A DNA stretch of 64,000 nt from an uncultured virus (IMG/VR IMGVR_UViG_3300006735_000024) (IMGVR_UViG_3300006735_000024), one strand, 5' to 3'; counted from the first letter of the stretch, positions 13,213-45,775 are shown. The notes: generated by a model not told the origin, from the letters alone. Program-made: numbers and translations.

Positions 13213-13230
13213 AAGCAAATTCTCCTACAG

Positions 13231-19922: not shown

Positions 19923-20486
19923 TCAAATTGAGTTTTTTAGTTCAAGATAATCATATGCTAATGTTACTGTATACTCAGTAATAGTATCAGCGGCATCATA
20001 TGACAAATCTATTGATCCGACTTCTACAGGCCAGCAGTTAATTAGAGAGATTGTTCTATCTGGAATAACAGAACCTGACATGTCAAGTTGCTGCACGGTC
20101 CATTGAGTATAGAAATCTTCATTTGTTCCGTTCAAGACACCTTGTGCATCAACAACATTTTCTCGATGTTTGTTGAATGATTCGTGCCATGATTCAAATT
20201 CTCTTCGGAAGTTTCTACCGGACTCTGAACCAGTAGTATCAACCATAGTGAATGTCCATTCTGCGTATGCACGGTCACCGGGTAGTTTTGCAACTCTTCC
20301 CCTAAAGGGAATTTGTAGAATACCAAGTGTCTGTGCAGGAACCTGTCCCGCCTTTACAAGTAGTGATTCTACAGCGTCTCCTACTGGTTGTCCGATAGTA
20401 CCGCTGATCACAAACCTGTTTGGACGAGTTCCCCCGTCGAATGCATTCTTAAAAGTGGCGATCTCATTTGGATGATTTTCTGCCAT
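19923..20486 (-). CDS. gp19: Tail tube protein, copy 1
   Basis: Same motifs and same length (187 aa) as the adjacent paralogue. Confidence 0.9.
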   Translation of the reverse strand: MAENHPNEIATFKNAFDGGTRPNRFVISGTIGQPVGDAVESLLVKAGQVPAQTLGILQIPFRGRVAKLPGDRAYAEWTFTMVDTTGSESGRNFRREFESWHESFNKHRENVVDAQGVLNGTNEDFYTQWTVQQLDMSGSVIPDRTISLINCWPVEVGSIDLSYDAADTITEYTVTLAYDYLELKNSI

Positions 20487-26556: not shown

Positions 26557-27078
26557 CTATTCTGATTCACTTTTTGGCGTTTCTTCTGGGGGAATTGGTT
26601 GTTCACCTATCGTAACTGGAACCTTTTGCACTAGTTCATAATCCATATTTTCAATATAAAATTTTCTAGTTACAGGTTCATCCGCTTCGTCTGGAGTAGA
26701 AACTAGATAGTTTGAAAATCCTGGCATCTGAAGAGGACATGCAACCTTTGGATAATCGAGTTTGCTGTATTCTTCTGCTTCTTGAATTAACCACGTTTGC
26801 TTTCTATCACCACATCCGCAAGCACCGCAGTAATTCTTTCCCTCTCCTGTTTCACTATCCATGAGATGTTCGCAGGGTGGTAGAACTCCGCCATTTTGCT
26901 GATTACCGAAACAACTCAAAACACGAAGTTGCTTTATAGGCTTATTGATTTTTTTGTTGTTGATACTTCTGGAAGCAAGTGCAGACGCAAAACTCTGAAC
27001 CATACTCAACTTTCTTTTTAGACCTCTTTTGTTTGGATCTGCGGGAACTTTTCTAAACTCCATATTTCCTTCTGACAT
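26557..27078 (-). CDS. Cys-motif hypothetical protein (putative metal-binding)
   Basis: R-x3-C...CEHL...YCGACGCGD...KLDYPKVACP; GGAG SD. Confidence 0.7.
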   Translation of the reverse strand: MSEGNMEFRKVPADPNKRGLKRKLSMVQSFASALASRSINNKKINKPIKQLRVLSCFGNQQNGGVLPPCEHLMDSETGEGKNYCGACGCGDRKQTWLIQEAEEYSKLDYPKVACPLQMPGFSNYLVSTPDEADEPVTRKFYIENMDYELVQKVPVTIGEQPIPPEETPKSESE

Positions 27079-27136
27079 ACAAAAATCTCCATGTTAAAAT
27101 ATAAAAAAAGTTTATTCTCAATAATATATATCTCGT

Positions 27137-28603
27137 TTATATGAGAGGAATCAATAAAACTCCCTTTGCATTATGAACTTTTTCTGTCGAACAGGTAGAT
27201 GTAAATCCATTGTCCATATCCTGAATATAGGTATATCTTGTGTCTCTTATATTATTAATTGTTAAATATGTTGATGTGTGATAATAATCTTTACTAAAAC
27301 CAACCCAATCTACATTATTGTTATATCTTTCCTTTGAATTGAGTTGAAATTCTGGAGTTCGCACTGCATTATATAAAAATCCTAGTGTCTCTATATCTGG
27401 TAATATAAACTTAAAGTTTTTATCATTTATTACAGAAAAGTATGAATCTATGTTATTATAAGAAACAGACAGAGAATAATTATGAACAAAAACAGCATAT
27501 GATATACCAGCGGTTACATTCTCAGTTGATTTTTCGAGTATTCTAGTTTCAGGTAAACCTGTGTTTTTATTTCCATAGTAATCTACACCTCTACCCTTGG
27601 TGTCTGATTTGGAATACATGATACCCGCATATCTTGCATTTAATCCTAAATATGATTTTCCAAGTTCCCAACCAGAAGCATGTGTAGAGTTATTATTATT
27701 TTTATATTCAAGTAAATCTGAAGCAACAGATGATGAACAAGTATGTCCAAATCCTGATGCATCTAGTCCTGACCAAATACCATTTCTGTGATCACAAACC
27801 TTTTTCGTTTCCTTTGAGCATTTGTATGAGGTATTATCGTCTTTGTATATACAGGCAGAACTATAATCAAACAGTCCTTTTGATATAATATTTTTTCTCT
27901 TAGCATTTATACTTTCCATATTTTCGTCGGAAATAACAAGAAGTCCATTTCTTTGATCCCTATTTCCTGCTCTCATTGCAACTTCATCTTCACAGTATGG
28001 AATGTCTTTATCACAAACCGGAGTGCTATTACATATAAAGAATTCGTAGAAAGAGGCATCAGGATTACCCGCTGCAATCTCTGCACAATCATCTGACGAA
28101 CATACATTTGTACATCCATCACTGCAACATGCACCAGGCCATCTTTTGTCGGTTTCTGTTCCTCCTGATGTGCATAGAGTGAAGGCATTCGACTGTCCTC
28201 CAGTTTCGTATATCGAACAAGAAACACCTGCTCCCGCCCAAGCACCACCAACTGCTCTACACTCACATTCGGTTACTTCTTTCAATCCTCCATCATCGCA
28301 GTAGTCATATGAATAATCACCACCTGCTCCCTGACACTCTCCTGCACAACCAGAATCGTTAAAAAATGATTGAAAATCTTCAACATATGAACAAGAACAA
28401 CAACAACCTTTTGTTGCTAAATCTGGACAGGTCCAAGGACCTTCGCTGGGAATGAAGTATCCATTTTGTGAAATACAATTTTGATATGTGGACGCAAACC
28501 CATCATTCGGACCAGAGTCGGGTAAACAGCAACCACCCTCATCCGAAAGGTAGTCGCTATAATCTGCAACTGTTTTAATTCTTGCTCTGTGTTGTACGCT
28601 CAT
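27137..28603 (-). CDS. Cys-rich repeat virion protein with a degenerate Lcl/DUF1566-like C-terminus
   Basis: GGCC/GCCC/GACC repeats, then FILPDIETL...YHTST; start ATG 28603 (GAGG SD, late promoter 28620-28627). Confidence 0.7.
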   Translation of the reverse strand: MSVQHRARIKTVADYSDYLSDEGGCCLPDSGPNDGFASTYQNCISQNGYFIPSEGPWTCPDLATKGCCCSCSYVEDFQSFFNDSGCAGECQGAGGDYSYDYCDDGGLKEVTECECRAVGGAWAGAGVSCSIYETGGQSNAFTLCTSGGTETDKRWPGACCSDGCTNVCSSDDCAEIAAGNPDASFYEFFICNSTPVCDKDIPYCEDEVAMRAGNRDQRNGLLVISDENMESINAKRKNIISKGLFDYSSACIYKDDNTSYKCSKETKKVCDHRNGIWSGLDASGFGHTCSSSVASDLLEYKNNNNSTHASGWELGKSYLGLNARYAGIMYSKSDTKGRGVDYYGNKNTGLPETRILEKSTENVTAGISYAVFVHNYSLSVSYNNIDSYFSVINDKNFKFILPDIETLGFLYNAVRTPEFQLNSKERYNNNVDWVGFSKDYYHTSTYLTINNIRDTRYTYIQDMDNGFTSTCSTEKVHNAKGVLLIPLI

Positions 28604-28619
28604 GTAGTTTCCTCTGTTG

Positions 28620-28627
28620 TATTTATA
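28620..28627 (-). promoter_or_regulatory. T4-type late promoter TATAAATA
   Basis: Exact consensus 16 nt before ATG 28603. Confidence 0.7.
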
Positions 28628-28634
28628 CCTACAA

Positions 28635-31397
28635 CTATTCTTGGCAGGATGGGAATCCAAAATTTATTCCGTCCATCATCCAGACGCACCTACCATCTGG
28701 AAGTTTTACTAGATCATTCATGTTTCTTGCACTTCTTCCTCCAGTACACAATTCACTAGTTTCTCCAGTACATTCGGCATTTTCACACGGATCATATTCT
28801 CCACAAATAACTTCAAAATTAGGTCTACAGTTTCTTTGACACGGGCATGATTCTTCATCGTCACCGGGACATCGCGGCCCAGTCTGATTATTATCACCGC
28901 AACCACATGTACAATCGTATCCAAAAATTGGAACTGGTTCACAACTTGCTTCTCCATCAGAGCAAGATGTTTCATAAAACACTTCGGGAGGAGTCACCGC
29001 GTAATTCATTACTGTATGAACACAGTCATCCGGTGCATCAATCCATAAATCTAGTGCATAACTTCCATCATCGGGATCTCTTGGAACCCAATCTTGCAAA
29101 CCCCAGGCTTCCCAATCAATACGTCCCGGAGAGCATTGTCTTAATGCCAAATGGAATCTTACACTGGGTTCTTCTATATCTCTAATCTCAATACCAAGCC
29201 CTTCAAATAGTTCTAGTCCGATTGGACTTGATATAAAGCCTGTGTCATAGCACTTTCTTTTTGTTCCTCTCTCTGGACAACAACAATTATATCCACATTC
29301 ATTTACGGACGGGCAAGGAATACAACCAAATGTGTTCAGGTTTGATACTTGACAACCAATTTCCTGACACGAATATTCAGAACCTACTCCCGGTCTGAAA
29401 ACGTATCTACCAACAACACCTATAGGAAATTCTCCTGACAATTCAATACATTTCTGTAATGTTACCTCTGTTTCACAACCCAAAGTAACATCAGTTGGAT
29501 CAGCACTATTTTGAACTTTAATAACATAACAACAAGTTCCAAGAACATCTTCTTCGCAAGGATTTGGAAAACAACCGATGTTATCTCCAAAGTATGTACC
29601 ACCAATTGTTTCACACTCAATTTGTGTTCTTTGTGAACATTCCTCGCCAGTACAACAGGCACCAATTTGAATAACAGTACATGAGTTATCGCATGTATCT
29701 TTATCTCGATACCATTGACCTGGTTCACAATCTATTTCATAACTTGGATCACAATTTCCAGTTTGCTGATTACAACACCATCCTATCTGATCATAACAAC
29801 AATTTGTAAATTCACACAGTGTGTCCGGGCCCATGAAAACCCCATTAGACTCCGCACATGTGGTATTTGTAGTATTGATACAACTCGAAGATTCAATGAT
29901 ACAACATGCTCCTTCGTGAACAATATGATCACAGCAATCTATCTCACCACAGAGTCCAGAAACAGGAAGTCCACCGTAAACATATTTACAAGCAACCGGA
30001 GTTATGACTCCTAGATTTGTATTTCCGTTTGTGTCTCCGAGACAAGAACCGTTTCTACAACATGCAAAATCTTCAATGTCACATGGGTTAAAACAGATGT
30101 CGCTATGGGGAGTTCCATCGGATAGAACTTCATCACAATCTACAGGAAATGGTTCTACTTCGGTGAGTTTTCCGTTAACCATTTCATAATAGAAATAATC
30201 CCAAAATTGTGCATTGAAGTAGTTACATTCTGCTGGTCCAATTCCCTCAAGACAAATTGCCTTTTCACCACCATGCCAGTCTCCACCTTCACTACAACAC
30301 ACTCCCTCTCCTATTTTTCCGCAGTTTTCTGAACAAGTGGAGAGAGGATTCCAGAAAGATTGATTCTTTAATGAACATGTGTTTTCTGGAACATAGTCTT
30401 CGCAGTCTGGAAGACCATTATCATTTATATAACAACAAGAACCCAAACCATAAACAGACTCACAACCCTCAACACCATATCCTCTTGATGCTATATTTGC
30501 ATACCAAGTTTTTCCCTTGTTGCTTGTTGATAGTCCCAAAATATCTGTTCCGCAAGAAAAGAATATATCAGTTTCATCAAAATATACATTTGAAGGCCAG
30601 TCCCATATATTATTACCATGAAGTAACATTGTAAATCTGAATGTTTCACCATCATGAAATTCACCAGTGAATCCTGCAATACCAATTGGTGTCTGTACGC
30701 TATACACAGAACCAGATGTGACACCGAGTTGAATTCCCACACCTCTACCGGCAGTCTGTCCACAATCTCCTTCGCACTCTCCTCCGTAGATTGTTACCGT
30801 TTCTTGTGTTGATATTTCTGGAACACTAACAACAATTTCTTCTGGATCATATGACCATCGATTTCCTGTAGGTCCGTGTCCAAATATAATTGTTCCCGTT
30901 AATCCTGTATCAAAGGTCAAACCAGAAACATCTGCTGTGTTACCAGCAGACAAGTAAGCAAATCTTAACCGATCTGATATTTCAGCAGTTGCGCCCTGTT
31001 GATAAACTTTGTCTCCGCTGATACCAATTGTGTTGTCTGTTTCATAAACTATTAGAGAACCTTCAGCACTAATTCCTTTAAACCAGAAAGTCATTCCTCC
31101 ACTAACTTCCTTGAAGATTCCCACACCAGAACCAGAATTTACTCCATCAGCATACCCAGATTCACCAGTAACACCTGCAACGCCATCTACTTTTATTTCA
31201 GTACCATCAGAGAGAACATAATAAACATAAGGCCATTCATGGTAACTTGAAACAACATATGTTCCAGTTACACCAATCGAACCTGTGGATCCAGTAGGTC
31301 CAGTTCCTCCAGTAAAACCACCACCAGCAGCACCCGTAGGGCCCTGTGGTCCTATTGATGCTGAAGGTATGATTGAACTACTTCCGATTACTGGCAT
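28635..31397 (-). CDS. Collagen-headed Cys-rich (GACC-repeat) putative tail fibre/adhesin, paralogue A1
   Basis: MPVIGSSSIIPSAS, G-X-T triplets, W-P--V-F...GTDI tail-like domain, multiple CC repeats, C-terminal VKLPDGRCVWMM. Confidence 0.75.
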   Translation of the reverse strand: MPVIGSSSIIPSASIGPQGPTGAAGGGFTGGTGPTGSTGSIGVTGTYVVSSYHEWPYVYYVLSDGTEIKVDGVAGVTGESGYADGVNSGSGVGIFKEVSGGMTFWFKGISAEGSLIVYETDNTIGISGDKVYQQGATAEISDRLRFAYLSAGNTADVSGLTFDTGLTGTIIFGHGPTGNRWSYDPEEIVVSVPEISTQETVTIYGGECEGDCGQTAGRGVGIQLGVTSGSVYSVQTPIGIAGFTGEFHDGETFRFTMLLHGNNIWDWPSNVYFDETDIFFSCGTDILGLSTSNKGKTWYANIASRGYGVEGCESVYGLGSCCYINDNGLPDCEDYVPENTCSLKNQSFWNPLSTCSENCGKIGEGVCCSEGGDWHGGEKAICLEGIGPAECNYFNAQFWDYFYYEMVNGKLTEVEPFPVDCDEVLSDGTPHSDICFNPCDIEDFACCRNGSCLGDTNGNTNLGVITPVACKYVYGGLPVSGLCGEIDCCDHIVHEGACCIIESSSCINTTNTTCAESNGVFMGPDTLCEFTNCCYDQIGWCCNQQTGNCDPSYEIDCEPGQWYRDKDTCDNSCTVIQIGACCTGEECSQRTQIECETIGGTYFGDNIGCFPNPCEEDVLGTCCYVIKVQNSADPTDVTLGCETEVTLQKCIELSGEFPIGVVGRYVFRPGVGSEYSCQEIGCQVSNLNTFGCIPCPSVNECGYNCCCPERGTKRKCYDTGFISSPIGLELFEGLGIEIRDIEEPSVRFHLALRQCSPGRIDWEAWGLQDWVPRDPDDGSYALDLWIDAPDDCVHTVMNYAVTPPEVFYETSCSDGEASCEPVPIFGYDCTCGCGDNNQTGPRCPGDDEESCPCQRNCRPNFEVICGEYDPCENAECTGETSELCTGGRSARNMNDLVKLPDGRCVWMMDGINFGFPSCQE

Positions 31398-31430
31398 AAA
31401 ATTATCCTATATTTACTATGTATTCAGAAA

Positions 31431-33791
31431 TCAGCACGGAGGAAACGGACAATCTTTACCACACATCATCCAAACACATGTTCCATCAGGCAATTTAACA
31501 TACGAATTTACCATTGTAGTGTCACTAATTTCTGGTGTACTCTGAACAGTTGGAGTAACATTTTCAATAAAAGTAGTAAATGGATTCGTTGCTGGACCGG
31601 GTATGGGATCGGGAGTAGTAGTGACATCAGGATCAGGAGTTGTTGGACATTCAAATTCTGGATAATCATCCCACGGATCTTCTGATGTATCATCATCTCC
31701 ACATTGAACTCCTTGAGTGAAAACTCCTTGGCAATTTTCACACTCTTCAAATGTTCCGGTAAAGGGAGTATCACTAATACAAGTAGAATCATCTGGTCTT
31801 TCATCGAAACAGCAACAACCATATGCTGTTTCACATGTATCTTCTTCGCATATTGTTCCGTTACCTAGATATATTCCACCAGCACCATAGCATAGAGTCT
31901 GTGATGTTAAGGAACAAACATCTTCTTGACAACACGCTCCATTGGGACTGCAATATACGTTATCCAATTCGTCACATGAATCTACAAAACCGTAAAACAC
32001 ACCACCAATACTTTCACAAACATTTTCATAAACTGGATATGAACAGGTTCCGTTTTTACAACAGGCACCACCTTCTCCGAAGCAGCAATTGACTTCGTTT
32101 TCACCACCATTTTGTCCCAAGCAATGTGTTTCAGGTCCCATGAACACACCACCATCAGATACACATGTGGAATATAATTCACGGTTGCAAGAACCTTCAC
32201 TGCTGTCTGATTCAGATTGTCTGCAACAAGCGCCTTCGTGTTCGATATAATCACAACAATCAACTTCACCACAAAGTTGTCCAAGAACAGGAACACCACC
32301 AAATACATACCTACACGATACAGGTGATATAAGTCCCAAGAAAGTTGAACCAGAATTATCACCGATACATTTTCCGTTTTTGCAACACGAAATTAATTGT
32401 TCATCACAAGAACCAACACATAATTTATTACTCAATGATTCTGAAGAGTCCCCATATAAAAATCCTTGGCCTTCATTTGCACAACCATACTGAGAACATG
32501 GCAGTTGTCCGCCACAAATAATCTCCATAGGTTCATCGAGTTTCTTCAGTCTCAAATCTGTGCTAGTGTTTTCCACATATTTGTAGGTATCATAAAATTT
32601 ACCATAGAAGAAAGCACATTCGTTTGGACCTATATTGTCATTACATATCGCTTCCCCACCAAAGAGTCCCCAATCTCCACCCGGACTACAGCACACTCCT
32701 CCGGTATTACCACAGTTGTCAGCACACGTTGATAGCGGGTTCCAACTAATGCTGTTATATACATTTTTGCATGTTTCTTCTGTTATATAATCTCTACAGT
32801 TTATGTTTCCACCATTGTCTATATAGCAACAAGAACCAACACCATAAACAGAATCACAATCATCGGTTCCATATCCTCTTGCTGAAACTGTACCATACCA
32901 CGACACTCCTCCGTCTTCTGAAAGAATGTTTAAAACATCTGTGCCACAAGAGAAGAATCTATCCTGTTTATCAAAATACAAATTTGCAGGGAAATCCCAC
33001 AACGCATTTCCCTTGAGAAGTATTGTAAAGTTTATGAGTTCTTCGGGACTAAATTCACCAGTGAATCCTGCAATACCAATTGGTGTTTGTATTTCATAAA
33101 CTGTACCGGCGGTAACACCAAGTTGAATTCCCACACCTCTACCGGCGGTAGGTCCACAGTCACCCTCACAAATTTCTCCATAGATTGTTACTGTTTCTTC
33201 TGATTCAATTTCAGAAATTGGAACTACTATTTCTTCTGGATCATATGACCATCGATTCCCTGTAGGTCCATGACCAAATATAATTGTCTCGGTAAGTCCA
33301 GTATCAAAAGTTAAACCAGAAACATCCGCCGTGTTTCCGTGTGAAAGATAAGCAAATCTCAACCTGTCTGATATTTCAGCAGTTAAACCCTCCTGATAAA
33401 GTTTATCGCCACTAATACCAATCGTGTTGTCTGTTTCATAAACAATCAATGAACCTTCTGCACTAATTCCTTTGAACCAGAAAGTCATTCCTCCGCTAAC
33501 TTCTTTAAAGATTCCTATACCAGAACCAGAATTAACTCCGTCAGCGACACTGGTTTCCCCTGTGTTACCTTTCAGTCCCTCTATTTTTATCTCTGTACCG
33601 TCTGATAGGGTTAGGAATAAATTCGGATCAATGTGGTAAGTTGAAACGACATATGTTCCAGTAATTCCGGTAGGTCCGGTCGGTCCTGTCGGACCAGTGC
33701 TTCCAGTAAAACCACCACCACTAGCACCACTAGGACCTTGAGGGCCTCTTGATGCTGAAGGTATGATTGAACTACTTCCGATTACTGGCAT
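31431..33791 (-). CDS. Collagen-headed Cys-rich (GACC-repeat) putative tail fibre/adhesin, paralogue A2
   Basis: N-terminal ~350 aa highly similar to A1; C-terminal VKLPDGTCVWMM. Confidence 0.75.
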   Translation of the reverse strand: MPVIGSSSIIPSASRGPQGPSGASGGGFTGSTGPTGPTGPTGITGTYVVSTYHIDPNLFLTLSDGTEIKIEGLKGNTGETSVADGVNSGSGIGIFKEVSGGMTFWFKGISAEGSLIVYETDNTIGISGDKLYQEGLTAEISDRLRFAYLSHGNTADVSGLTFDTGLTETIIFGHGPTGNRWSYDPEEIVVPISEIESEETVTIYGEICEGDCGPTAGRGVGIQLGVTAGTVYEIQTPIGIAGFTGEFSPEELINFTILLKGNALWDFPANLYFDKQDRFFSCGTDVLNILSEDGGVSWYGTVSARGYGTDDCDSVYGVGSCCYIDNGGNINCRDYITEETCKNVYNSISWNPLSTCADNCGNTGGVCCSPGGDWGLFGGEAICNDNIGPNECAFFYGKFYDTYKYVENTSTDLRLKKLDEPMEIICGGQLPCSQYGCANEGQGFLYGDSSESLSNKLCVGSCDEQLISCCKNGKCIGDNSGSTFLGLISPVSCRYVFGGVPVLGQLCGEVDCCDYIEHEGACCRQSESDSSEGSCNRELYSTCVSDGGVFMGPETHCLGQNGGENEVNCCFGEGGACCKNGTCSYPVYENVCESIGGVFYGFVDSCDELDNVYCSPNGACCQEDVCSLTSQTLCYGAGGIYLGNGTICEEDTCETAYGCCCFDERPDDSTCISDTPFTGTFEECENCQGVFTQGVQCGDDDTSEDPWDDYPEFECPTTPDPDVTTTPDPIPGPATNPFTTFIENVTPTVQSTPEISDTTMVNSYVKLPDGTCVWMMCGKDCPFPPC

Positions 33792-33813
33792 AAAGTTATC
33801 CTATATTTAGTAT

Positions 33814-36800
33814 CTATTCACAAACAGCATTACATTGATCTTCTAAAGGATACCAGTCAAACCCGTTATTTTCACATTCACTTTTGAGAGTTTCTGGACA
33901 GAACCCACCATTAGCACTTCTACTTCTTCTCTCCGCAGAGGATTTGGGAACTAATCCTGTCAATGCCTTTATATGTACATTCCACAATTCGTTAACCATA
34001 TCTTCTCCGAATTCCTTTATAGGATCTGTTGAATTTGCTATGAAATCCCAACCTTCGTATCTGTTTGCTAATTCTTGAATTTCTTTTGTTGCTACACACT
34101 TACAGTAAGGATATTCTCCAAGGCAATTTCCCGATTCGGTGAAAGGTTCAACGAGCCAAAATTCTTGTTCATTTCCGAACTCATCACTATCGGGACCAGG
34201 ACATTGAGGATCATCGACATCGGTATCAAAACATGCACAACCACCACCCGGCGGACAACCATTGTGTGTTTGTCCACCATCAGGTGGTTGCTGACGAGAG
34301 CAACATACTTGATCAGTCGCACATGGTGAATCGGGACAGTCTACGGACAGATTTCCTCCAATTAAGTCTGGACATGAAACATCACCTTTGCAACAAAAAG
34401 TACATGGTTCCTGTCCATCCGCATATAACTGCTCGTCACCATCATATCCTTCAGGACAATCTTCGTCAAAGTAATCAACATAACTTCCACCGTCAGTACC
34501 TCTGGCACAACCTCCCCTTGCCCAGATATCCTTTATGCAGTATGTACCAAAGTCAAGTTCACAGCATACATTCCCGGGCACATATGATCCAATCGCTCCA
34601 TCAAACCCCGGCCAAGGTTCACCCGATTTCCAAGGTTGATTTGGATTGCTCTTTAGACACGCACATCCTCTCCAATCCGTTTGCTCTATCCATTCGTTTT
34701 GAGACAAACAACAACCAAACCCATCATCTACCGAGTTATTATCCGAGACAGGTCCGCATCCAGCAAAACTATTATCTGCATCTGGTTCTGCCGACCACAG
34801 ATAAGGGTTGCAATCGTAAGCAACTTGTTGTTTGGTAGGACCTCCACCAACCCCATCTGGATTAGCGTCATCAGGATATCCATTTGGATAGTATGCAGCC
34901 CTTTGTCCCAGTGGACTATGTTCGCTTCCATCTGCATTGAATTGAGCCCCGCGTGCGCCGTAGTTACGACACACATAAGAAGAAAGTTCCGGGTTTGGAT
35001 CCCACGGATTTGTGAAACCACCATATTCAAGGCTGCACTTTATCTCCTCAAGTGTGTCATCGGGGGGACAACGCGAAACAAACACCGAAGGCGAACATCC
35101 CTTATCGTATGGATTGTATGGTGATGGTGATACACCCTTCGCCGGTGAAAACGGATTGTCTGCTGGATAATCTGGGTGAGACCATGCTCTGTACCCGTTT
35201 GGTTCTGGAATATAAATGTCGGATAGAGGATTGATCCAAGGATGTCCTTCTGGTAAGTCTTGATAATTATACCAGTACGAAACTCCTTTTGTTCCCCAAA
35301 TCTCTTCATTTTGATACGTTTTCATCAAATCTAAACATTCAAAGTATGTGAGGTCTTCAAAGGCAATTGGACCAGGTAATCCCGCATAGGTTTCTGATAA
35401 ATCCCGCCTCAGTACACAAACACCCAAGTCGTCATATACAATATCACATATACCTTCATCATCACATGAAGTACCAACTCCCTTAAACTCACCATCGTTC
35501 TCGATACACTCTGTACCTGTTTCAATAGTGCAATTAGTTATTGGTAAGAAAGGATCAGGTCTACAACATGCACCAGTATTAAATTTTGGTGGGTTGCAAC
35601 AATATCCTAGAGGATCGTCTTCTTCTGACTCAAAGTCAGAATGACAACAACATTCCCAACACGTTCCATCTGCAAGAAGAATGCTTCCGCATGATTGGAA
35701 TGTTTCTCCTTCTCCAAGAGCCTGTTCAGCACATATTGCAGAATATATTTCCAAGTATGAAGAAGTTAAATCGTCTGCACTTAATGCAATTTTTTCATAT
35801 TCTGGACCAGATGAGAAACTACTCAACGACGAATCAAATTCTCCAAGTTGAACGGTGTATATAATAACACCCATTTCTTTGAGTTGATTTGCTAACAGAA
35901 TTGATTCTTCAGTACAATTGGGGTTTTGTGCGCCATCACCCAATAACACAAGAACAGGTAGTGCTACTCCAGGTCTTGCTCTTGCACTTTCAAATTCTTC
36001 AATAACTCTATTGAATCCATTTGTAGTACAAGTAGCACCGTCTGGTAATGTTCTTAATTGGTTAATTTTACTTTCAAATATATCTTGATTAAAAGTTAAT
36101 TGTTGATGTAAAATACCTTCAAGATTAAATGTTGCACATCCTAGTTTATCGGTTGCAGGATTTGTTTGATCAACAATAGTTAAAACCGCATCGCATGTTG
36201 CATCGATTGCTTTGATTGTTCCTCCTTCTCCATCGGGAATGGGAGAAAGCATACTAGTGCTTAAATCAACCATAAAAATAATGTCTGATTTTTTATTATA
36301 ACAGCAACCAATTCCAGTAGTGCATCTTGAACTACCATCTGGTAAAATACAAGCAGAATTACATCCATTCCAACAAACACTTTTATATTCTGGGTTGTTA
36401 TTTAATGCAGTACAATCATCAGAATTTAGTTGCGAGCAACTCCAACTTCCGTCAGTTCTTTCGGTGCAACAAGCACCAATACAATCACTAGTACCTGAAT
36501 TACAAGTTCCGCAAGCACAAGCACAACATTGGGGTGCATTGTCTGGATTTTCTTCATAATCAGGACCACAATATCCAATCGAGTCTGCTGCACATATGTT
36601 TAGTTCAGGATCACTTGATATTTCTTGTGACCAACCCAAACAACCTAGACACGGAGGGGGACCTCCATTTCCATCGATACAATTTCCTTCTGAATCTATA
36701 GGACCTATTACGGTTCCATCTTCATTTTCACCACAATCATGTGGAGCATATGTTCCCGTGTTTCTATAAGGACCGGCACAACTAGAACCTATTCCCCAGA

Positions 36801-38145: not shown

Positions 38146-38173
38146 AATTAAATCCTATACTTTAATGCTAAAC

Positions 38174-38181
38174 TATTTATA
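38174..38181 (-). promoter_or_regulatory. T4-type late promoter TATAAATA
   Basis: Exact consensus upstream of B1. Confidence 0.7.
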
Positions 38182-38189
38182 AGCACCAT

Positions 38190-41100
38190 TCATCCTTCCT
38201 GAATCGGGGGAGGCGGCCCTTCACCACAACATTGATGACCATCACAGCATTCCTGTTCACATGCGGCCTCGGTGCATTTCTGGCCACAAAATGGAGGACA
38301 GGGTCCTTGTGCGTTTATCGTGTGGGGACAACACCAGTTCGCGTCCGTAGGCTCTCCCTGACCTAAATCATTGGGAACCGGGCCGCACTTCTTCAGTTTA
38401 CATTCCTCTTCTGTTATGTACCCATGATAACATTCACAAATTACGCCACCGGGAGCGGTGGTGTCAGTTCTATATTTGTGAGGGTGTTTACAGCAACAAT
38501 GTCCGAGCGTCGTACCGTTCAGATGACATACTCCCGGCTCCACCTCGAAGTAACCATCAGGACATTCCCATCCATCTTCAGGAGCGCATAATCCGAACTC
38601 TAGTGGACCGCAATATAAATCGCCTTGGTATTCGTATCCGTTGCATGGATACTCACCATAGTCTGCACGGGGAGCAGTCTGTACAGTTGGGCAGTCAATG
38701 ACGATCTCAGGTGGTTTGATACCCATACACTCTTGTGCAGGGGGACCAATAATGACAGCAGGTCTTTCTTCTTCAACACCTTCGACTTCAACCGTAAACA
38801 TTACTTGAGGAGACAGGCCGGCAAGTATACGCAATTTAGGATCAAGTACCTCTGTTCCAAAAGCATCACTATTTTTATATAGTTGATCAATAGCACCATC
38901 GATTGGTCTGAATATCAAAGCGGGATTTCCCAGAGCATCTGTTGTCCAAATACTTCTTCTATTGAGAGATAATCCCGGATTCACACCTGTATTACAAGCA
39001 CTACATTCCCAAGAAGATTTAGTTACTATCGATGGACCACCGCAATATTTATAGATAGCCTCAGTCTGACAGAATGTACACCAAGGTTCTTCTGGTAATT
39101 CTGGGCAAGTCTTACCTCCCTCATCATCTTCCACTGGAGGCCGGGAACCTTGACACCCACAACCATACGGAGGAATAGATTGCGTAGCCCATTCTTTCTG
39201 CTGACAACATAATCCCATATCAGAGTCACCCAACCGATATTCTTCTGGAACACTGAAGCGTCCAGGCGCATCTATACCACCGAAGTAATATCCACATGTA
39301 TTCGAGCCAAGATCAGGTGTAAGAGAAAATGGTAAAGTGAAGGTAGTACCACCGAGAGTGTATGTGCTTCCACAAGACGTTCCTGGTCCTGCCCATAGAT
39401 ATTCGACATCTGGTGCTTGCATTCCAACTGGTGGTGTTGAATCTCCTGTCTCCTCATATATGGCAGGAAGTTTACTTGCACATTCGGCCTCGGTTACCTC
39501 AACACATAATGCGTTCCGAGCAGAGCAACATGCACCCAGCATGTAAATCGAACAATCTACATCATTATCATTACAAGTTGTTTCGGGACCTTGCCAATAA
39601 CCATTACTTGCAGCACAATTAGTTTCTTCTCTAATTTCACATGTTCCATCTTGGAAGCAACAAGCACCTTCAGCAGTAAATGCCTGACAAGCATCGCAAC
39701 TCACACCAACTCCGAGGAATGTAGAGGTTCCAAAGCAGGCAGTTTCATTGGTTTGAGTGCAGTCGGCATTAGCAGCATCACAACAAGCACCATCACATGT
39801 AGTGTCATTACACAGTGTATTAAATACTGTTGTTCCACCAAGACCGGCACAATCTTCTGGGGGTATATCGTCTACACAGAAACCAGTAATACAACACGCA
39901 TTGGTGTCTTTATCATCGGGACATGGACCTTCCGTCCAACCGGAATCATTTCCATTGTATTGTTCACAGTAACATTTAGAAGTTTCTCCTATCTGCACTT
40001 CACCATCTAGGCAACATCCTATAATTTCATTCGGACATCCTTGATTTCCATTCTCCGACGAACAATCACCCGAAGTCCATGTCACATCTTGATAATCACC
40101 ATCTGGGTAACAAGGAACTGTTCCAGCCTCAGCACCTACATCTGCTAAATTCTCACAATCATAGAATAATTTATTACCAGTTTCATCGCAATGATAACTT
40201 TCTTCGCCGGGGTTTCCTCCCCACCAGCAACAACTTCCGCAACATTCATGATTAGTATCCGAATACCATATAGTTGGATATTCTTGAGTGGAAAGCGAAT
40301 CGCAAATAGTTTCCGTAATAGGAACACCACTGGCAGTACATGGTCTTGGTTGACCGTTAATATTATATGCTCCACCACAACATATTCCTACTTCATCACA
40401 ACCAGCATCTGCACAACTTAAACCTTCGTTGAATTTACCGTCACAATCTTCTTCGGTAGAATCATCAGTACAAGTACCATCACTATTACAACATGCACCA
40501 GTTATGATAGTATCACAAGAACTGCAAGTTAAATCTTCTTTAAACTCACCTCCAGTAATATCGCATTGCTCTTCTGTAGCCTCTTCGATACAAGAACCAT
40601 CCGTATAGCAGCAAGCACCAAGCGGAGATTGAAGTGTGTCGCAAATACTGCATGTAGAATCTTGATAGAAAGTACCACCACTATTGCTACATGTTATCTC
40701 ATCTATAAGTTGACAATTATCAAACTCATAGCAACATGCCCCTTGAGGGTTACTGCATGGATTTGATTCACAAGTCTGTCCTTCTAGGAAATATCCACCA
40801 CTATTGTTGCATTCTTCGACTGTTACATATGAACACGTTTGATCCACACAACATGCACCCAGTTCGACTGGCGGTTCTTCGTCTTCTTCTTTTGTTTCAC
40901 AACAACATTCCCAGCATGTTCCATCGACAGTGATAATTGTACTACATGATTCTAAATTTGAACCGCAGACATTACACCCATATTGACCGTCACCAGTATC
41001 ACAGGGACAATAGACATCATCAGCAGCACATATGTTTATTGTAGGATCAGAAGAAATTTCTTGAGTCCAACCAACACAATCTGTACATGGAGGTAAATCT

Positions 41101-42590
41101 CCATTCGGACAAAGACCATCCTCCAATTCCCCGAAAGTTTGATTACCAAATCCTCTTCGAGTACAATCGTGGGGATAGTATAAACTTTCTTCATCTGGTC
41201 CTGCACACTTTGAACCGATTCCCCAGAATATTCCTGGCGTACCACCACTTGATACCATCTTAGAACAAAGAAGTGCAGATGTGTTATAACACGCCTCGTC
41301 TAAACAACACGCACCATTTTGAGTTTCGAGGCAACAATTGATAGCGTCATCACCAGTACACGAACCTTGTATCCAAACACTGTTTGGTTCAAAGGAACAT
41401 TGATATTCTGTCAGTTCAAAACAAACTTGGTTGATACAACATGCGCCTATTTCTTCTTCTGAGCATGGATCTGGACATCCTCCCAGAAGTTCAACTTCTT
41501 GACATGTATTACCGTCAACAAAGAATCCACCATACGTTTGACATTTTTCTTCGGAGGTTTCTGTGCATCCACCAAGAAGACAACATGCTCCCTGTGGATA
41601 GCAATCAGGTCCTTCAGGACGATTTAAACAAGGAATAGATGAGAATGAACCACCAACAGAATCACAATAAGTTTTATTGACATAATCAACACATCCTGAT
41701 CTATCTGGACCATTAGAGTTTTCACAGAAACAACAAGAACCAATAAAAATGTCACCCTGAATTAAATTGTCAAATGTCAATCCAGTGAATTCGTAAATTA
41801 CATTATCATCTCCAGTTTTTCCTAGATGAAATGCACTTACCATTCCTTTTGTGATCGGAGAATTTGAATTTTCTTGATGTTGAGTTATATAAGTAAATGG
41901 AACAACAGTTCCATGAACCTCTGCCGTACCTGCAATCGGAGATGTGTTTATAGGATTTGATCCTCTTTGATTAACCTCTGTCCCAATAACAATATTATTA
42001 TTGAGTTCTCCGGTTTTCGATTCTCTATGAGTTAATATTCTTGCAGTGAGTTGATCACCACTCCAGAATGTATTTAATGCTCCGTGTGCAGATGCACCAG
42101 AGAAATTATAAACAAGTTCACCTGTGTTTCCTAATCTGCCTTGATCGTATGTTGTACCAGAAAGAAGTATGGTGTAATCAGAAGTTACACCAATCGAAAT
42201 GTCTTCACCACTAACTGTAAGTGATTTAAAATAGGCAGTAATACCATTCTTGACTTGGAAAATTTGTCCGTATTCAGGTCCTTCGATTGCATTGATGATC
42301 TGGAAATTTTCACTATCGTCCACACCAGTAGCGCCTCTTGCACCACTCACACCGACAGTGCTTCCGTCTGTTAAATAAAATGTAATCAAGTCGTTACCAT
42401 ACGAACCACCAGGTCCGCCGCTTGCACCAGTCGCAGATATAATACCGATACCAGTTGCAACACCACCAATGGGACCTGTTGCTCCAGTAGCACCAGTAGC
42501 ACCAGTAGGGCCTATAGGCCCAGCGGGACCAGTGAGAGAGTTTGTCCCACTGGTGGTTAATATCCTACTAGAACCCTGAATAGATGGCAT
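38190..42590 (-). CDS. Collagen-headed Cys-rich (GACC-repeat) putative adhesin, paralogue B2
   Basis: N-terminus near-identical to B1; ten exact GACC motifs plus variants. Confidence 0.78.
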   Translation of the reverse strand: MPSIQGSSRILTTSGTNSLTGPAGPIGPTGATGATGATGPIGGVATGIGIISATGASGGPGGSYGNDLITFYLTDGSTVGVSGARGATGVDDSENFQIINAIEGPEYGQIFQVKNGITAYFKSLTVSGEDISIGVTSDYTILLSGTTYDQGRLGNTGELVYNFSGASAHGALNTFWSGDQLTARILTHRESKTGELNNNIVIGTEVNQRGSNPINTSPIAGTAEVHGTVVPFTYITQHQENSNSPITKGMVSAFHLGKTGDDNVIYEFTGLTFDNLIQGDIFIGSCCFCENSNGPDRSGCVDYVNKTYCDSVGGSFSSIPCLNRPEGPDCYPQGACCLLGGCTETSEEKCQTYGGFFVDGNTCQEVELLGGCPDPCSEEEIGACCINQVCFELTEYQCSFEPNSVWIQGSCTGDDAINCCLETQNGACCLDEACYNTSALLCSKMVSSGGTPGIFWGIGSKCAGPDEESLYYPHDCTRRGFGNQTFGELEDGLCPNGDLPPCTDCVGWTQEISSDPTINICAADDVYCPCDTGDGQYGCNVCGSNLESCSTIITVDGTCWECCCETKEEDEEPPVELGACCVDQTCSYVTVEECNNSGGYFLEGQTCESNPCSNPQGACCYEFDNCQLIDEITCSNSGGTFYQDSTCSICDTLQSPLGACCYTDGSCIEEATEEQCDITGGEFKEDLTCSSCDTIITGACCNSDGTCTDDSTEEDCDGKFNEGLSCADAGCDEVGICCGGAYNINGQPRPCTASGVPITETICDSLSTQEYPTIWYSDTNHECCGSCCWWGGNPGEESYHCDETGNKLFYDCENLADVGAEAGTVPCYPDGDYQDVTWTSGDCSSENGNQGCPNEIIGCCLDGEVQIGETSKCYCEQYNGNDSGWTEGPCPDDKDTNACCITGFCVDDIPPEDCAGLGGTTVFNTLCNDTTCDGACCDAANADCTQTNETACFGTSTFLGVGVSCDACQAFTAEGACCFQDGTCEIREETNCAASNGYWQGPETTCNDNDVDCSIYMLGACCSARNALCVEVTEAECASKLPAIYEETGDSTPPVGMQAPDVEYLWAGPGTSCGSTYTLGGTTFTLPFSLTPDLGSNTCGYYFGGIDAPGRFSVPEEYRLGDSDMGLCCQQKEWATQSIPPYGCGCQGSRPPVEDDEGGKTCPELPEEPWCTFCQTEAIYKYCGGPSIVTKSSWECSACNTGVNPGLSLNRRSIWTTDALGNPALIFRPIDGAIDQLYKNSDAFGTEVLDPKLRILAGLSPQVMFTVEVEGVEEERPAVIIGPPAQECMGIKPPEIVIDCPTVQTAPRADYGEYPCNGYEYQGDLYCGPLEFGLCAPEDGWECPDGYFEVEPGVCHLNGTTLGHCCCKHPHKYRTDTTAPGGVICECYHGYITEEECKLKKCGPVPNDLGQGEPTDANWCCPHTINAQGPCPPFCGQKCTEAACEQECCDGHQCCGEGPPPPIQEG

Positions 42591-42604
42591 AACAAATCAT
42601 TCCC

Positions 42605-45600
42605 TTAATCCTGATTTATATTTTTATCGCTGTCTCGCAACACCTTAGGCATTTTTGTGAGTTTGTCACTTGAAGATTTTCCGTCGCAACGAATCATACG
42701 AATAGGTCTTACTTGATATGTATTCGTAGTTCTATTTTTCTTGCCTACCAAAAATTCGTCTTTATTTCCTTCAACGTCAAACTTCATTGCCCAGGCAACT
42801 GTTCCGGGATCAGCAGTTGCACCAGAATTGGAAGATACCATTACACCTTCTTCATATCCCCCTGTGATTCCTCTTGTCTCATCGAATGCACCAGTAGATG
42901 TCCAATACCATCCTTTATATGGACTACCACCATATGCTAAAAGATGAGAATTCAAATCAAAGTCGTATTGATTATCACGAACACAATTCTCTGCAATAAA
43001 TCCTAGTTCATCATGACTTGGAATATACCAAGAAGAAACTTCAGGAATATTAGAACCAGTCAAACCATCAACCGCCCCTGTGGTTCCATTTAATTCATCT
43101 CTATATAATCTACAAATTCTGAACGCAGAAATATAATCAGCAGTCAAACCAGGTCCAAATTGCTCTGATGTGTATAAATTATTAGTTTCGTTATATACCT
43201 GTGATAATGCATTGTCCGCACTAATAATTCTTAAGTTGTTATGGAATCCATAGTTTCGATGCCAGAAACCGTTTGCTGATTGATTCGGTCTTGTTAGGAG
43301 TTTACTTACACCATCGACTCCAAGACTTCTTGCCTTTGCACATGTGGTATAAGTATTGAAAGGAAGATTTATCAGAGAAGGTTCTTCCATAAATCTATCA
43401 TACCAGTAACCTTCATTTAGACTAAATTTATTTTTATAGTCTTCGTTTAAGTCATTATATTGTAGAGTGTCTTGATTATAGATTGGTCCCCAAGAACTTC
43501 CTCTGTTACTCCAATAAAATTCTGCTGTTGCACTTGGATAGTCTTGTAAAAGAACTACTTCTCTATCACCTGTTACAGCAAGTGGAGATAATGCAGTGAT
43601 CACATAGTACGCATCAACACGGGTTTGGTCATTCAGAATATCCAACTCATTAAATTCTGTACATCCCTTGTCAGATGTGAATCCATAACCGTGGAAATCA
43701 TACTTTGACCTGTATGTTTCTCCTATTAAACCACTGTCTGAGGTAGAACCAGTAGCACCAACCATCAATTCTTCCCAGTTTGCAGTTCTATCCTTTCCGA
43801 AACTGTTGTGTCCAAGCACAGAACCACCATGAGGTCTGTATATTCCAACAACCATTCCACCTGCATATAAATCACCGGGTTGTAGATTTAGTGCTTGAAT
43901 TCCAGAGTTTCCGTTAAATTCGTCATCTGAAACACAGTCAACACCACAGCATTTGCTTCTGTCTCCAGCATATAGATTGCCTGCGTTCACACAAGTTTTG
44001 AATGTGGTGCTATTACTGCAAGAAGAACCTTCACAACAAGCACCAGTCCCACCCGCACAAATTTCAATAATATCATTTCCATATCTCTTTGTGCATGGAA
44101 TTCCTTCACCTTGGAAAAATCTTCCTAAAGTATCACATTCTGAATGTGTCAGTAGTTCGCAATTTCCCAAACCATCACAACAGGCACCTAAATCTTTTGA
44201 TGCAGATTCACAGTCCATGTTGTAGCATTCATTTCCTGTTCCACCAAATGTGGTTTCAATATAGAGAACATCAGAATAATTTACACAAGCATCAATTGTT
44301 TGTTGCGTACAATCTGTTTCCTTTGTTGATGTGTTATAGGAACAACAAGGTCCTTTTTCAAAACATACTGATTCTGTTGAACTTCCGCATGTTGTTCCGC
44401 ACCCAACAAAGTAACCACCGAAGCATTTTGACTCTGTTGTATGAACACAAATTCCATCACCCAAGCAACAGGCACCTGTTGCGCCCGTTGTTCCTGCTGA
44501 ATCTAAAAATTCAATACCGGGATAATCTTGAACACCATCAGTATATAAGTTTCTTGTTCCTGCAACTTCATGGCAGAAGAAAGGATTATTATCTGTATCA
44601 TTGTCCATTATATTATCGGGAGATTTCCACTGAATCAGATTTCCATGCCATGCTACTCCATTGGGACATATTTCTCCCCGTGTTTCACATGGAAGCCAAA
44701 AGAAGTTAAAGATATCAGTACCACCACTGAAACATGGTGCTAAATCTAAAGGCCAAGTAACATTCGTAAATCTTTCCACAGGAACTAATGAATTTTCTGC
44801 ACCGTGAACAATGAGAGTGAATGCCTTTGTTAAGTTTGGTTTTCCTTCTGCTGGAATTCCTGAAATATTATTTCCTGTATATCCAAAGGATGCATCATTT
44901 ATAACAAATTGAACTGGACCAGTAGAACCACTCTCATGCATATCCGCAAAGGTGAGTCCTCTCATATCTGCTATGAATACCTTTGCGATATTCGGATCTA
45001 TTGTTCCTTGATAAAATGGAGGATTACCTTCTTCACCAAATCTCCGAATATCGTATGTTCCGGGATCACCATTGTCAACGGTTAAATACTTGGACTTTTC
45101 TTTATATGATTTTACACGAACATCAAGTGCATTTAGTCCACTGTCGTAAGAAGCACCAGTGAAACCATGAAGACGAACTGGTTGTCCCTCGTCTGTTCCA
45201 ACAAGAGAACCGATTCCCGAACTTGGTTGTGTGTTTAGATAACCAAAGTTTCCTCTATCGTAGTGTAGATTTATTTCACTGGTTGCAGTATTATCTGTTA
45301 AGGTTAAAGCATCACCTGCAACTTCGATTGCTTTTATAGTGATTGTATTACTAGAATTCCTAACCTTAAATACAGTTGCACCACCGCTAGGCAATGTATA
45401 ACCAGGCGGTGTTCCTTCTGGTCCACCCGAAGTGTTACCGCCATCTATATTGTTTATTGAATTTCCAGTAGGTCCTTTAGCAAGAGTGGATGTCACATAA
45501 CCACCAGTGTAACCACCAATCGGATCTCCATGAAAATTATATCCATGAAATATTTGGTGTAATTTTCCATCCTGAATATACATTGCAGTGGAACCAGCGA

Positions 45601-45775
45601 TAGGTCCAGTAGAACCCATCATACTTGCACCAGTAAGTCCAGTTGCACCAGTAGGTCCAGTAGGTCCAGTAGAACCAGAATCTCCAGTAGGTCCGGTGGG
45701 TCCGATAGGACCGGTGATTGCATCACCGCCTATTGGTAAAAAGAAACTACTTCCATGAACTACTGGTGCTACCAT
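42605..45775 (-). CDS. Collagen + GACC repeats + Lcl/DUF1566-like (C-type lectin fold) putative receptor-binding protein
   Basis: GPTGPTG triplets; GACC repeats; WYIPSHDEL...WYWTST...AWAMKF...VRPIR. Confidence 0.72.
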   Translation of the reverse strand: MVAPVVHGSSFFLPIGGDAITGPIGPTGPTGDSGSTGPTGPTGATGLTGASMMGSTGPIAGSTAMYIQDGKLHQIFHGYNFHGDPIGGYTGGYVTSTLAKGPTGNSINNIDGGNTSGGPEGTPPGYTLPSGGATVFKVRNSSNTITIKAIEVAGDALTLTDNTATSEINLHYDRGNFGYLNTQPSSGIGSLVGTDEGQPVRLHGFTGASYDSGLNALDVRVKSYKEKSKYLTVDNGDPGTYDIRRFGEEGNPPFYQGTIDPNIAKVFIADMRGLTFADMHESGSTGPVQFVINDASFGYTGNNISGIPAEGKPNLTKAFTLIVHGAENSLVPVERFTNVTWPLDLAPCFSGGTDIFNFFWLPCETRGEICPNGVAWHGNLIQWKSPDNIMDNDTDNNPFFCHEVAGTRNLYTDGVQDYPGIEFLDSAGTTGATGACCLGDGICVHTTESKCFGGYFVGCGTTCGSSTESVCFEKGPCCSYNTSTKETDCTQQTIDACVNYSDVLYIETTFGGTGNECYNMDCESASKDLGACCDGLGNCELLTHSECDTLGRFFQGEGIPCTKRYGNDIIEICAGGTGACCEGSSCSNSTTFKTCVNAGNLYAGDRSKCCGVDCVSDDEFNGNSGIQALNLQPGDLYAGGMVVGIYRPHGGSVLGHNSFGKDRTANWEELMVGATGSTSDSGLIGETYRSKYDFHGYGFTSDKGCTEFNELDILNDQTRVDAYYVITALSPLAVTGDREVVLLQDYPSATAEFYWSNRGSSWGPIYNQDTLQYNDLNEDYKNKFSLNEGYWYDRFMEEPSLINLPFNTYTTCAKARSLGVDGVSKLLTRPNQSANGFWHRNYGFHNNLRIISADNALSQVYNETNNLYTSEQFGPGLTADYISAFRICRLYRDELNGTTGAVDGLTGSNIPEVSSWYIPSHDELGFIAENCVRDNQYDFDLNSHLLAYGGSPYKGWYWTSTGAFDETRGITGGYEEGVMVSSNSGATADPGTVAWAMKFDVEGNKDEFLVGKKNRTTNTYQVRPIRMIRCDGKSSSDKLTKMPKVLRDSDKNINQD

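Follow-up and report, generated by a model that had tools for sequence, protein, structure and literature searches.

A probable host-recognition fibre cluster built on six-cysteine beads in an uncultured marine T4-like phage

Introduction

Tail fibres decide which cells a phage infects. In the pelagimyophages, the region between VrlC and gp14 is described as a hypervariable 'host recognition cluster' that includes tail fibres and collagen repeats (PMC7029224). The Legionella collagen-like adhesin (Lcl) is described as having a trimeric C-terminal domain (Lcl-CTD) that binds sulphated glycosaminoglycans (PMC11162425). Disulfide bonds are also on record in phage tails. In cyanophage Pam3, disulfides link twelve fibres to the wedge, and dithiothreitol detaches them (PMC9942802). 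Likewise, a tail part of Agrobacterium phage Milano is described as reliant on disulfide bonds (PMC10811340). The present analysis concerns a stretch of 64,000 nucleotides (nt) from an uncultured virus (IMG/VR IMGVR_UViG_3300006735_000024), which is termed the window and is part of the phage genome only. Its subject is an array of six large genes for cysteine-rich proteins (B507, C920, D786, E1443, F1466 and G1056), together with the small gene A173 next to them.

The whole array probably serves a lineage of uncultured marine T4-like myoviruses as its host-recognition fibre cluster, with paralogous fibres built on one plan. The six are taken for fibre-type virion genes because of their position, from gp6 and the wedge genes to gp13 and gp14, and because of their collagen heads, which match tail-fibre families of PHROG. 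Their main building block is a repeated unit of 38 residues with six cysteines, referred to as the bead.

Layout of the array and lineage of the phage

The six consecutive open reading frames (ORFs) lie on the minus strand, as does every gene of the window, and occupy positions 27137-45775 between baseplate genes and the neck gene gp13 (Table 1). Cysteine is normally avoided in proteins made inside bacteria. In the array, each protein carries 28-140 cysteines, and the six sum up to 435, with B counted from the ATG at 28603. Among the 37 remaining ORFs tabulated in the window (those of at least 120 residues), 35 have a cysteine content of 0-2.7%, and the two exceptions are listed in Table 1. 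The exact motif GACC is found 23 times in the six array proteins together and in no other tabulated ORF. An earlier note, made from this DNA alone, had described six consecutive large ORFs with a cysteine repeat between baseplate and neck genes, ten exact GACC motifs within 38190-42590, and five ORFs that start with a GSS motif and collagen triplets. All three observations hold: 27 units are recognized by a profile in the six proteins, every one of which has some; F1466 contains ten GACC; and the five are C, D, E, F and G.

One flank of the array carries gp48, gp53, a gp5-like gene, gp25, gp6, wedge genes and a gene for a tail-fibre-like protein of 818 residues. The other flank carries gp13, gp14, gp15, terminase, sheath, tube, portal, protease, scaffold and gp23. 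In its major capsid protein, the phage shares 60% identity with Methylophilales phage Melnitz, 59% with Pelagibacter phage HTVC008M and 57-58% with cyanomyoviruses; in the neck proteins, the identity with the same phages is about 40%. The T4-type flanks and the kinship of capsid and neck thus place the array at the site of the host recognition cluster of pelagimyophages and cyanomyophages.

Relatives of the array are also found in other uncultured viruses. F1466 has a 93%-identical relative among proteins; in IMG/VR, one copy is 100% identical to it and further relatives are 43% identical. Relatives of G1056, 29-52% identical, occur in the viral loci L002, L083, L099-101 and L105. A scan of IMG/VR with the bead alignment yielded 25 viral loci, and those of low G+C (33-41%) are syntenic, with G-like, E/F-like, C/D-like, B-like and A173-like genes followed by gp13 and gp14. 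Two genes of the E/F type and two of the C/D type are present in the window.

Marine metagenome runs from three further studies contain near-identical copies of the array. In a seawater run of a fourth study, a relative of about 95% identity has replaced or strongly diverged stretches at 28935-29508, 34127-35088 and 39423-39544. These fall within C, E and F, while the remaining array aligns, and they look like hot spots of fibre variation. Some metagenome contigs join the collagen-coding heads of paralogues, namely 45667>42474 (G-F), 45677>33657 (G-D) and 31314>45647 (C-G). Such joins either arose in assembly, by cross-joining at the shared G-X-Y coding repeats, or are genuine recombinants of fibre genes.

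Table 1. Positions of the array genes, their parts and related elements in the window.
Feature	Position	Strand	Description
A173	26557-27078	minus	173 aa; Cys 3.5%
B507	27137-28660	minus	Cys 5.7%; exact GACC 1; beads 2
B protein from ATG	27137-28603	minus	488 aa; Cys-rich N-terminal half, 2 degenerate beads, no collagen
TATAAATA	28620-28627	minus	17 nt upstream of B ATG 28603; within C920 3' end
C920	28635-31397	minus	Cys 7.9%; exact GACC 2; beads 4
D786	31431-33791	minus	Cys 7.3%; exact GACC 3; beads 4; IGSS head, collagen, proximal domain
E1443	33814-38145	minus	Cys 7.1%; exact GACC 4; beads 4; Cys-rich distal part
VWA domain of E1443	35770-36285	minus	residues 621-792, inserted internally; DxSxS motif VDLSTSM
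TATAAATA	38174-38181	minus	29 nt upstream of E1443 start
F1466	38190-42590	minus	Cys 9.5% (140 Cys); exact GACC 10; beads 10; N-terminal parts: QGSS head, collagen, proximal domain
F1466 bead array 2	39474-39899	minus	residues 898-1039; 4 units (by profile)
F1466 bead array 1	40389-40859	minus	residues 578-734; 4 units; segment folded by AlphaFold2
G1056	42605-45775	minus	Cys 3.3%; exact GACC 3; beads 3 (residues 434-615); HGSS head, 10 collagen triplets, Cys-poor proximal domain, beads, Cys-poor distal half
Lcl_C-like stretch of G1056	42869-43081	minus	residues about 899-969
ORF in the baseplate-hub region	56168-56893		Cys 4.1%
H983	56914-59865	minus	983 aa; Cys 9.7%; 2 weak beads; baseplate-hub region, outside the array

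The six-cysteine bead

The bead was defined by a hidden Markov model (HMM), seeded on seven units of F1466 and then rebuilt on database matches. The final profile is based on 929 units from 61 proteins, and the six cysteines are complete in 746 of them. Its consensus, GACC-x5-C-x7-C-x3-GG-x-[FY]-x-G-x3-C-x4-C, has 38 positions with the core GG-x-[FY]-x-G and six cysteine columns, which are profile positions 3, 4, 10, 18, 32 and 37. On the proteins of the window, the HMM finds 29 units at an independent E-value below 0.01, of which 27 are in the six array proteins and two weak ones in H983. All six cysteines are aligned in 16 of the 29 units and the first five in 8 more.

Four units of F1466 were modelled by AlphaFold2 (AF2) with a 94-row alignment of four-unit stretches. 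The mean predicted local distance difference test score (pLDDT) was 89.3 and the predicted template modelling score (pTM) 0.48. Such a combination suggests confident, separate beads with an undefined mutual arrangement. Each bead is predicted to fold into a β-hairpin, a short helix and a strand. The model thus supports the bead as a genuine, self-contained, cysteine-rich module, and the repeats that the earlier note had picked out appear in it as autonomous small folds.

A Foldseek search with the bead model gave nothing at E ≤ 0.001, and its top rows were ADAM17 at E 0.77 or worse. In an exhaustive structural scan, the cysteine-rich part of human ADAM17 alone was matched (PDB 9xy4 and 8snl). 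One superposition on this part has a Z of 4.1 and a root-mean-square deviation (rmsd) of 1.7 Å over 40 residues with 20% identity; the second has a Z of 2.1 and an rmsd of 2.0 Å over 39 residues with 31% identity. These scores are too low for kinship, but the likeness between model and structure hints at a small fold of the disulfide type.

Collagen heads, paralogues and variable modules

The proteins C, D, E, F and G open with the heads MPVIGSS, MPSIQGSS or MVAPVVHGSS, which are followed by 7-12 uninterrupted G-X-Y triplets. In G1056, the ten triplets span residues 22-51. In 12 aligned heads of the E/F type, G6, S7, S8 and the glycines of the triplets are invariant, and GSS is present in 22 of the 34 distinct collagen heads of relatives. 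With E-values from 9e-4 to 4e-7, the heads of D, E, F and G match tail-fibre or collagen families of PHROG.

The absence of such a head in the B protein bears on where the proteins are attached. Some of the six could be whiskers of the neck or collar, or head fibres, in place of baseplate fibres. The gene order in T4 is gp12-wac-gp13, and the place of B and A173 presumably matches that of wac (fibritin), just upstream of gp13. Moreover, the one head motif in five paralogues suggests several similar docking sites. This placement is somewhat unlikely and, in any case, it would alter the place of attachment and not the nature of the proteins.

The array contains two pairs of paralogues. C and D are 56% identical over residues 1-660, with a longer distal cysteine-rich part in C, and E and F are 61% identical over residues 1-526. 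The DNA identity of the paralogues is 77-91% in the proximal domain and falls to about 40-50% distally. Duplicated fibre genes usually show this pattern of a kept attachment end and a diversified distal end.

Beyond the shared proximal region, the proteins carry different modules. The VWA domain of E1443 matches Pfam PF00092 at E 6e-9, with 36.8 bits against a cut-off of 23.8 bits, and VWA sequences of the PDB are matched too. Lcl_C is matched by 10 of the 12 G-type tips, including that of the window (E ≤ 0.1; best E 1.7e-8). The C-terminal domain of B is cysteine-poor and Lcl_C-like: a comparison of B-type with G-type tips by hhalign gave a probability of 97.3% and an E of 1.7e-11 over 56 columns. 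Adhesion modules can, therefore, be recognized in three or more of the six proteins, and this supports a role as adhesins. The earlier note had proposed fibre-type genes with swappable tips. This is borne out in part, the fibre type by the position and the PHROG-matching heads, and the modularity by the paralogues, the VWA domain and the Lcl_C-like ends.

Two further motifs were observed in these proteins. C920 and D786 both end in VKLPDG-x-CVWMM, and DGTCWECCC stands at the end of the region common to E and F (about residue 830 of E1443 and 560 of F1466). These motifs may be module boundaries.

Carriers of the bead in phages and bacteria

Residues 570-1040 of F1466 match 60 proteins, and the E-values of the bacterial ones range from 1e-84 to 1e-4. 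A profile built on four-unit stretches was searched against 1.84 billion representatives, in clusters at 50% identity, and gathered 8,962 clusters at E ≤ 0.001, 5,444 at 1e-10 and 1,848 at 1e-30. When each species was represented by a single genome, over 634 stretches fit the bead pattern, of which 390 were confirmed. The best 77 genome loci were tallied by hand: 39 belong to Planctomycetota (21 of them Phycisphaerae/-ales), 19 to Candidatus Eisenbacteria and 17 to bacteria without a finer assignment, and one each is from a metagenome-assembled genome of Alphaproteobacteria and of Lentimicrobiaceae. The taxonomic survey foreseen in the earlier note thus leads to a large family, mostly of Planctomycetota and Candidatus Eisenbacteria.

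No family of Pfam, NCBIfam or PHROG covers the bead, be it in the phage proteins or in the bacterial carriers. The bead array of F1466 matches nothing among PDB sequences at E ≤ 1. Among GenBank phages (INPHARED), a set from which the window's own record may be missing, megablast gives no match for the array, and tblastn against 50,697 phage records gives none for F1466, G1056 or A173. In these searches, then, the repeat matches no characterized phage fibre family, a match that would have spoken against the proposal of the earlier note.

The bacterial carriers have hydrophobic, signal-peptide-like N-termini, as read by eye. Besides the bead array, they contain S8 peptidase, PKD, SdrD-B, LamG, multicopper oxidase and dockerin domains. 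Thus, the bead proteins of Planctomycetota and Eisenbacteria are apparently secreted, and their beads seem to form a stalk that links a functional domain to an anchor. The phage and the bacterial repeats are alike in the 38-residue unit, the six cysteine columns, the GG-x-[FY]-x-G core and the tandem arrays. They differ in that the bacterial units are very regular and have a PNPCP linker, whereas the phage units are more divergent and lack it. Furthermore, the bacterial proteins combine signal-peptide-like N-termini with extracellular catalytic or anchoring domains, while the phage proteins have a collagen head and no signal peptide.

Such a distribution raises the idea that the bead was recently acquired from the host, which would make the host a member of Planctomycetota or Eisenbacteria. 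The tally of the best 77 loci speaks for it, as do the neighbours in the Atlas, which are viral and Planctomycetota clusters. However, the identity between phage and bacterium is only 34-48% over 90 residues, and the phage clade has a G+C content of 33-43%. The closest cultured relatives infect OM43, SAR11 and cyanobacteria, and the spread of the bead through a diverse phage clade argues for an old residence. A recent transfer is hence very improbable and a planctomycete host unlikely.

A separate set of IMG/VR viral contigs (L082, L087, L093, L096-L098, L103 and L104) has a G+C content of 60-67% and bead ORFs with 3.8-11.5% cysteine. Collagen heads are absent from these ORFs. The contigs could stem from phages or prophages whose hosts are high-G+C bacteria, or they could be fragments of bacteria.

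Chemistry of the beads and the redox question

The heavy use of cysteine runs counter to the usual rule for proteins of the bacterial cytoplasm. It poses the question of when and how more than 100 cysteines per chain are paired, or whether they are metal-bound. The phage proteins start with MPVIGSS or MPSIQGSS and have, by inspection, no hydrophobic leader, unlike the bacterial carriers. With no signal peptide, they would be made in the reducing cytoplasm.

Cysteine-rich modules of the cytoplasm usually bind zinc, and the beads could accordingly be metal-binding modules in which zinc or iron is held by thiolates. Metal-bound beads would fold in the cytoplasm without oxidation, so that no disulfide problem would arise. 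This agrees with the phage proteins having no signal peptide and with no oxidoreductase having been found in the window ORFs scanned or in five partial relatives. However, six invariant cysteines per 38 residues, with no conserved histidine, suit three disulfides better than tetrahedral sites. The bacterial kin look secreted and carry extracellular domains, and the sole structural matches are to the disulfide-rich extracellular part of ADAM17. The demand for metal would presumably also be high in seawater, which is poor in trace metals. Metal binding is, therefore, unlikely. We infer that three disulfides per bead are favoured over metal sites, because the six cysteines are invariant, no histidine is conserved, the bacterial kin are extracellular and the structural neighbour is of the disulfide type.

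The earlier note had looked, among other options, to a phage-encoded folding aid, with a thioredoxin (Trx) domain and the 173-residue cysteine protein as the candidates, and to co-occurrence with thiol oxidoreductases in related phages. The scanned ORFs of the window contain no Trx, glutaredoxin (Grx), DsbA or Erv family, and no ORF of the window apart from A173 has a plausible CxxC of the Trx type. In five related partial phage records, which are 13-55% complete, no Trx, Grx or DsbA match was found; Erv1 gave no match there either, but the Erv1 control matched nothing anywhere. A173 does contain CxxC and has no family or structural match. A folding aid encoded by the phage thus finds no support in either candidate or in the relatives. 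Since no phage thiol oxidase was found, oxidation after lysis is the most likely and the simplest remaining route. Both the disulfide chemistry and this timing are deduced.

The linked protein A173

A173 has six invariant cysteines (C56, C69, C84, C87, C89 and C114), which include a C-x2-C-x-C motif. Its family comprises 620 protein clusters at E ≤ 0.001 and is present in at least 586 IMG/VR contigs; in the syntenic bead loci, the A173-like proteins are 58-63% identical. The position of the gene is constant, between a B-type gene and gp13. The surroundings were counted on the best 80 loci. In all 37 loci with at least 3 kb upstream, there is an upstream ORF of at least 250 residues with at least 4% cysteine (up to 16.6%), and among these 37, at least one bead is found in 31 and a collagen head in 20. 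On the other side, gp13 is the next gene in 78 of the 78 loci with at least 900 nt downstream.

Given this linkage, A173 could be a dedicated redox or folding factor for the cysteine-rich fibres. It has a CxxC among its six invariant cysteines, it adjoins cysteine-rich fibre genes in every one of the 37 loci, and it was not found among the GenBank phage records. It has, though, no Pfam, PHROG or NCBIfam family. The AF2 model is moderately confident, with a pLDDT of 66.2 (four of the five models are below 46), and it gave nothing in Foldseek at E ≤ 0.001 and nothing VIA-wide at Z ≥ 2. Moreover, the C-x2-C-x-C motif with distant cysteines resembles a metal site more than an active site of the Trx type, and a structural or adaptor role would account just as well for the constant place beside gp13. 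A redox role of A173 is, therefore, rather improbable.

Nine A173 homologues (P0154, P0161, P0163, P0166, P0167, P0174, P0176, P0179 and P0180) have an N-terminal extension. It starts with MGC(G/N)C-x-NKNK, which adds three cysteines, while one homologue starts with MACGC, which adds two.

Proposed plan of the fibres

The plan that the fibres are proposed to share can be followed from one end to the other. The conserved N-terminal x-G-S-S peptide would serve as the docking or assembly end, and the 7-12 collagen triplets would trimerize the chain. A proximal domain would come next, similar between the paralogues and free of cysteine (cysteine-poor in G1056), and then the strings of autonomous beads, with F, Y or W at the aromatic position of the core. 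These would be combined with diverse modules, namely Lcl_C-like C-termini of a carbohydrate-binding type in G and B, an internal VWA domain with a metal-ion-dependent adhesion site (MIDAS) in E, and uncharacterized cysteine-rich parts in C, D and F. Each bead would be held by three internal disulfides and would act as a stiff, protease-resistant spacer, as it apparently does in surface proteins of Planctomycetota and Eisenbacteria. The fibres would be synthesized in the reducing cytoplasm, and the beads oxidized only when the virions meet oxygenated seawater after lysis.

Several points weigh against this interpretation. The six proteins are putative virion components, assigned to the particle on the grounds of their genes. 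C920 has no match to a PHROG family, and the Pfam collagen model reports nothing on the window ORFs at E ≤ 0.01. The match of G1056 to Lcl_C (PF07603) scores 17.1 bits (E 0.0068), below the cut-off of 34.9 bits, and a direct Pfam Lcl_C match is obtained in 2 of the 15 B-type tips only. The weak match to ADAM17 (Z 4.1 and 2.1) says nothing on the chemistry of the bead. The pairing of cysteines was also sought in their joint loss, and this was rejected: the units that do not keep all six (all but 746 of the 929) are mostly alignment truncations. Pairing is not deducible from conservation because the cysteines are almost never lost. Lastly, with relatives of only 13-55% completeness, a phage oxidoreductase could lie elsewhere.

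On the proposed plan, it is tentatively suggested that the fibres are 'cured' outside the cell, such that the reduced strings of beads lock stiff only once the virions meet dissolved oxygen. This is possible, yet it is the less probable outcome. If true, the ability of the clade to adsorb would depend on the redox conditions around the virions, and oxygen-minimum or anoxic water would weaken or delay it. With an assumed six trimers per protein per virion, the 435 cysteines would amount to several thousand thiols per particle. Such curing would also be an extracellular maturation step undescribed for tailed phages, and it would act through a domain family shared with surface proteins of Planctomycetota and Eisenbacteria.

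Other features of the window

The exact sequence TATAAATA, a late promoter of the T4 type, occurs seven times in the window, always on the minus strand, and is 17-77 nt upstream of a start codon in six of the seven cases. It is not enriched, as seven compares with 4.3 expected and 21 of 100 shuffles reach seven. Its place 17 nt upstream makes the ATG at 28603 the likely true start of B. The earlier note had credited several of the array genes with a late-promoter motif of their own. An exact one does stand before E1443 and before the ATG of B, but only near-matches are found for C, D and F.

In the baseplate-hub region, H983 stands between the ORFs 59874-61901 and 56168-56893, which match successive parts of phrog_350 (tail protein), one at profile positions 173-299 and the other at 350-435. 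The cysteine-rich H983 thus seems to lie inside a split gp5-like hub or spike gene. The relatives L090 and L092 have a cysteine-rich ORF (11-16% cysteine) upstream of gp6. Elsewhere in the window, there are three tail-tube-like paralogues (phrog_45) and an unusually short sheath of 414 residues, at 12607-13218, 19349-19912, 19923-20486 and 20523-21767. A glutamine-synthetase-like gene at 2839-4278 (minus strand) is placed among replication genes and matches Pfam Gln-synt_C (E 2.4e-20) and Gln-synt_N. It may be an auxiliary metabolic gene.

Significance and comparison with known systems

A widespread, uncultured clade of marine T4-like phages apparently builds its fibres from a module with no counterpart in Pfam, NCBIfam, PHROGs or the PDB sequences. 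As the bead family comprises 8,962 clusters, the structure and chemistry of a single bead would annotate thousands of proteins. As a spacer, the stable, autonomous bead could also find practical applications, and A173 is a convenient marker gene for the phage clade.

Collagen-headed, modular phage fibres are a known kind. The six-cysteine bead as the main building block and the linked A173 gene are undescribed in the catalogues and literature searched. In the open-access literature searched, neither cysteine-rich fibres of marine T4-like phages nor the repeat of planctomycetes was found to be described, and the word stem 'cystein' is absent from the host recognition cluster paper (PMC7029224). 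In its general form, the array resembles the cluster of pelagimyophages and cyanomyophages, for both are hypervariable structural blocks of tail fibres and collagen-repeat proteins that end at the neck genes. In the cultured relatives Mosig and Melnitz-3, however, the fibre genes have 0-1.0% cysteine, against 3.3-9.5% in the array proteins.

The collagen-like phage tail fibres (PHROGs 6320, 5073, 819, 8745 and 30509) are likewise large structural proteins of the tail module with a G-X-Y tract that is N-terminal or internal. The matches to them are confined to this tract, while the proximal domain, the beads and the distal parts have no PHROG match. The Legionella adhesin Lcl shares with G1056 and its relatives a collagen-like tract and a C-terminal domain of the Lcl_C type. 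It differs in several ways: G1056 is under the Pfam cut-off and has an insert of about 850 residues, including the beads, between collagen and tip, and Lcl is a secreted bacterial adhesin, whereas G1056 is a structural gene of a phage. Finally, Pam3 and Milano are described as having a few bonds between subunits made by ordinary domains. Here, in contrast, there are dedicated six-cysteine modules, up to ten in a chain.

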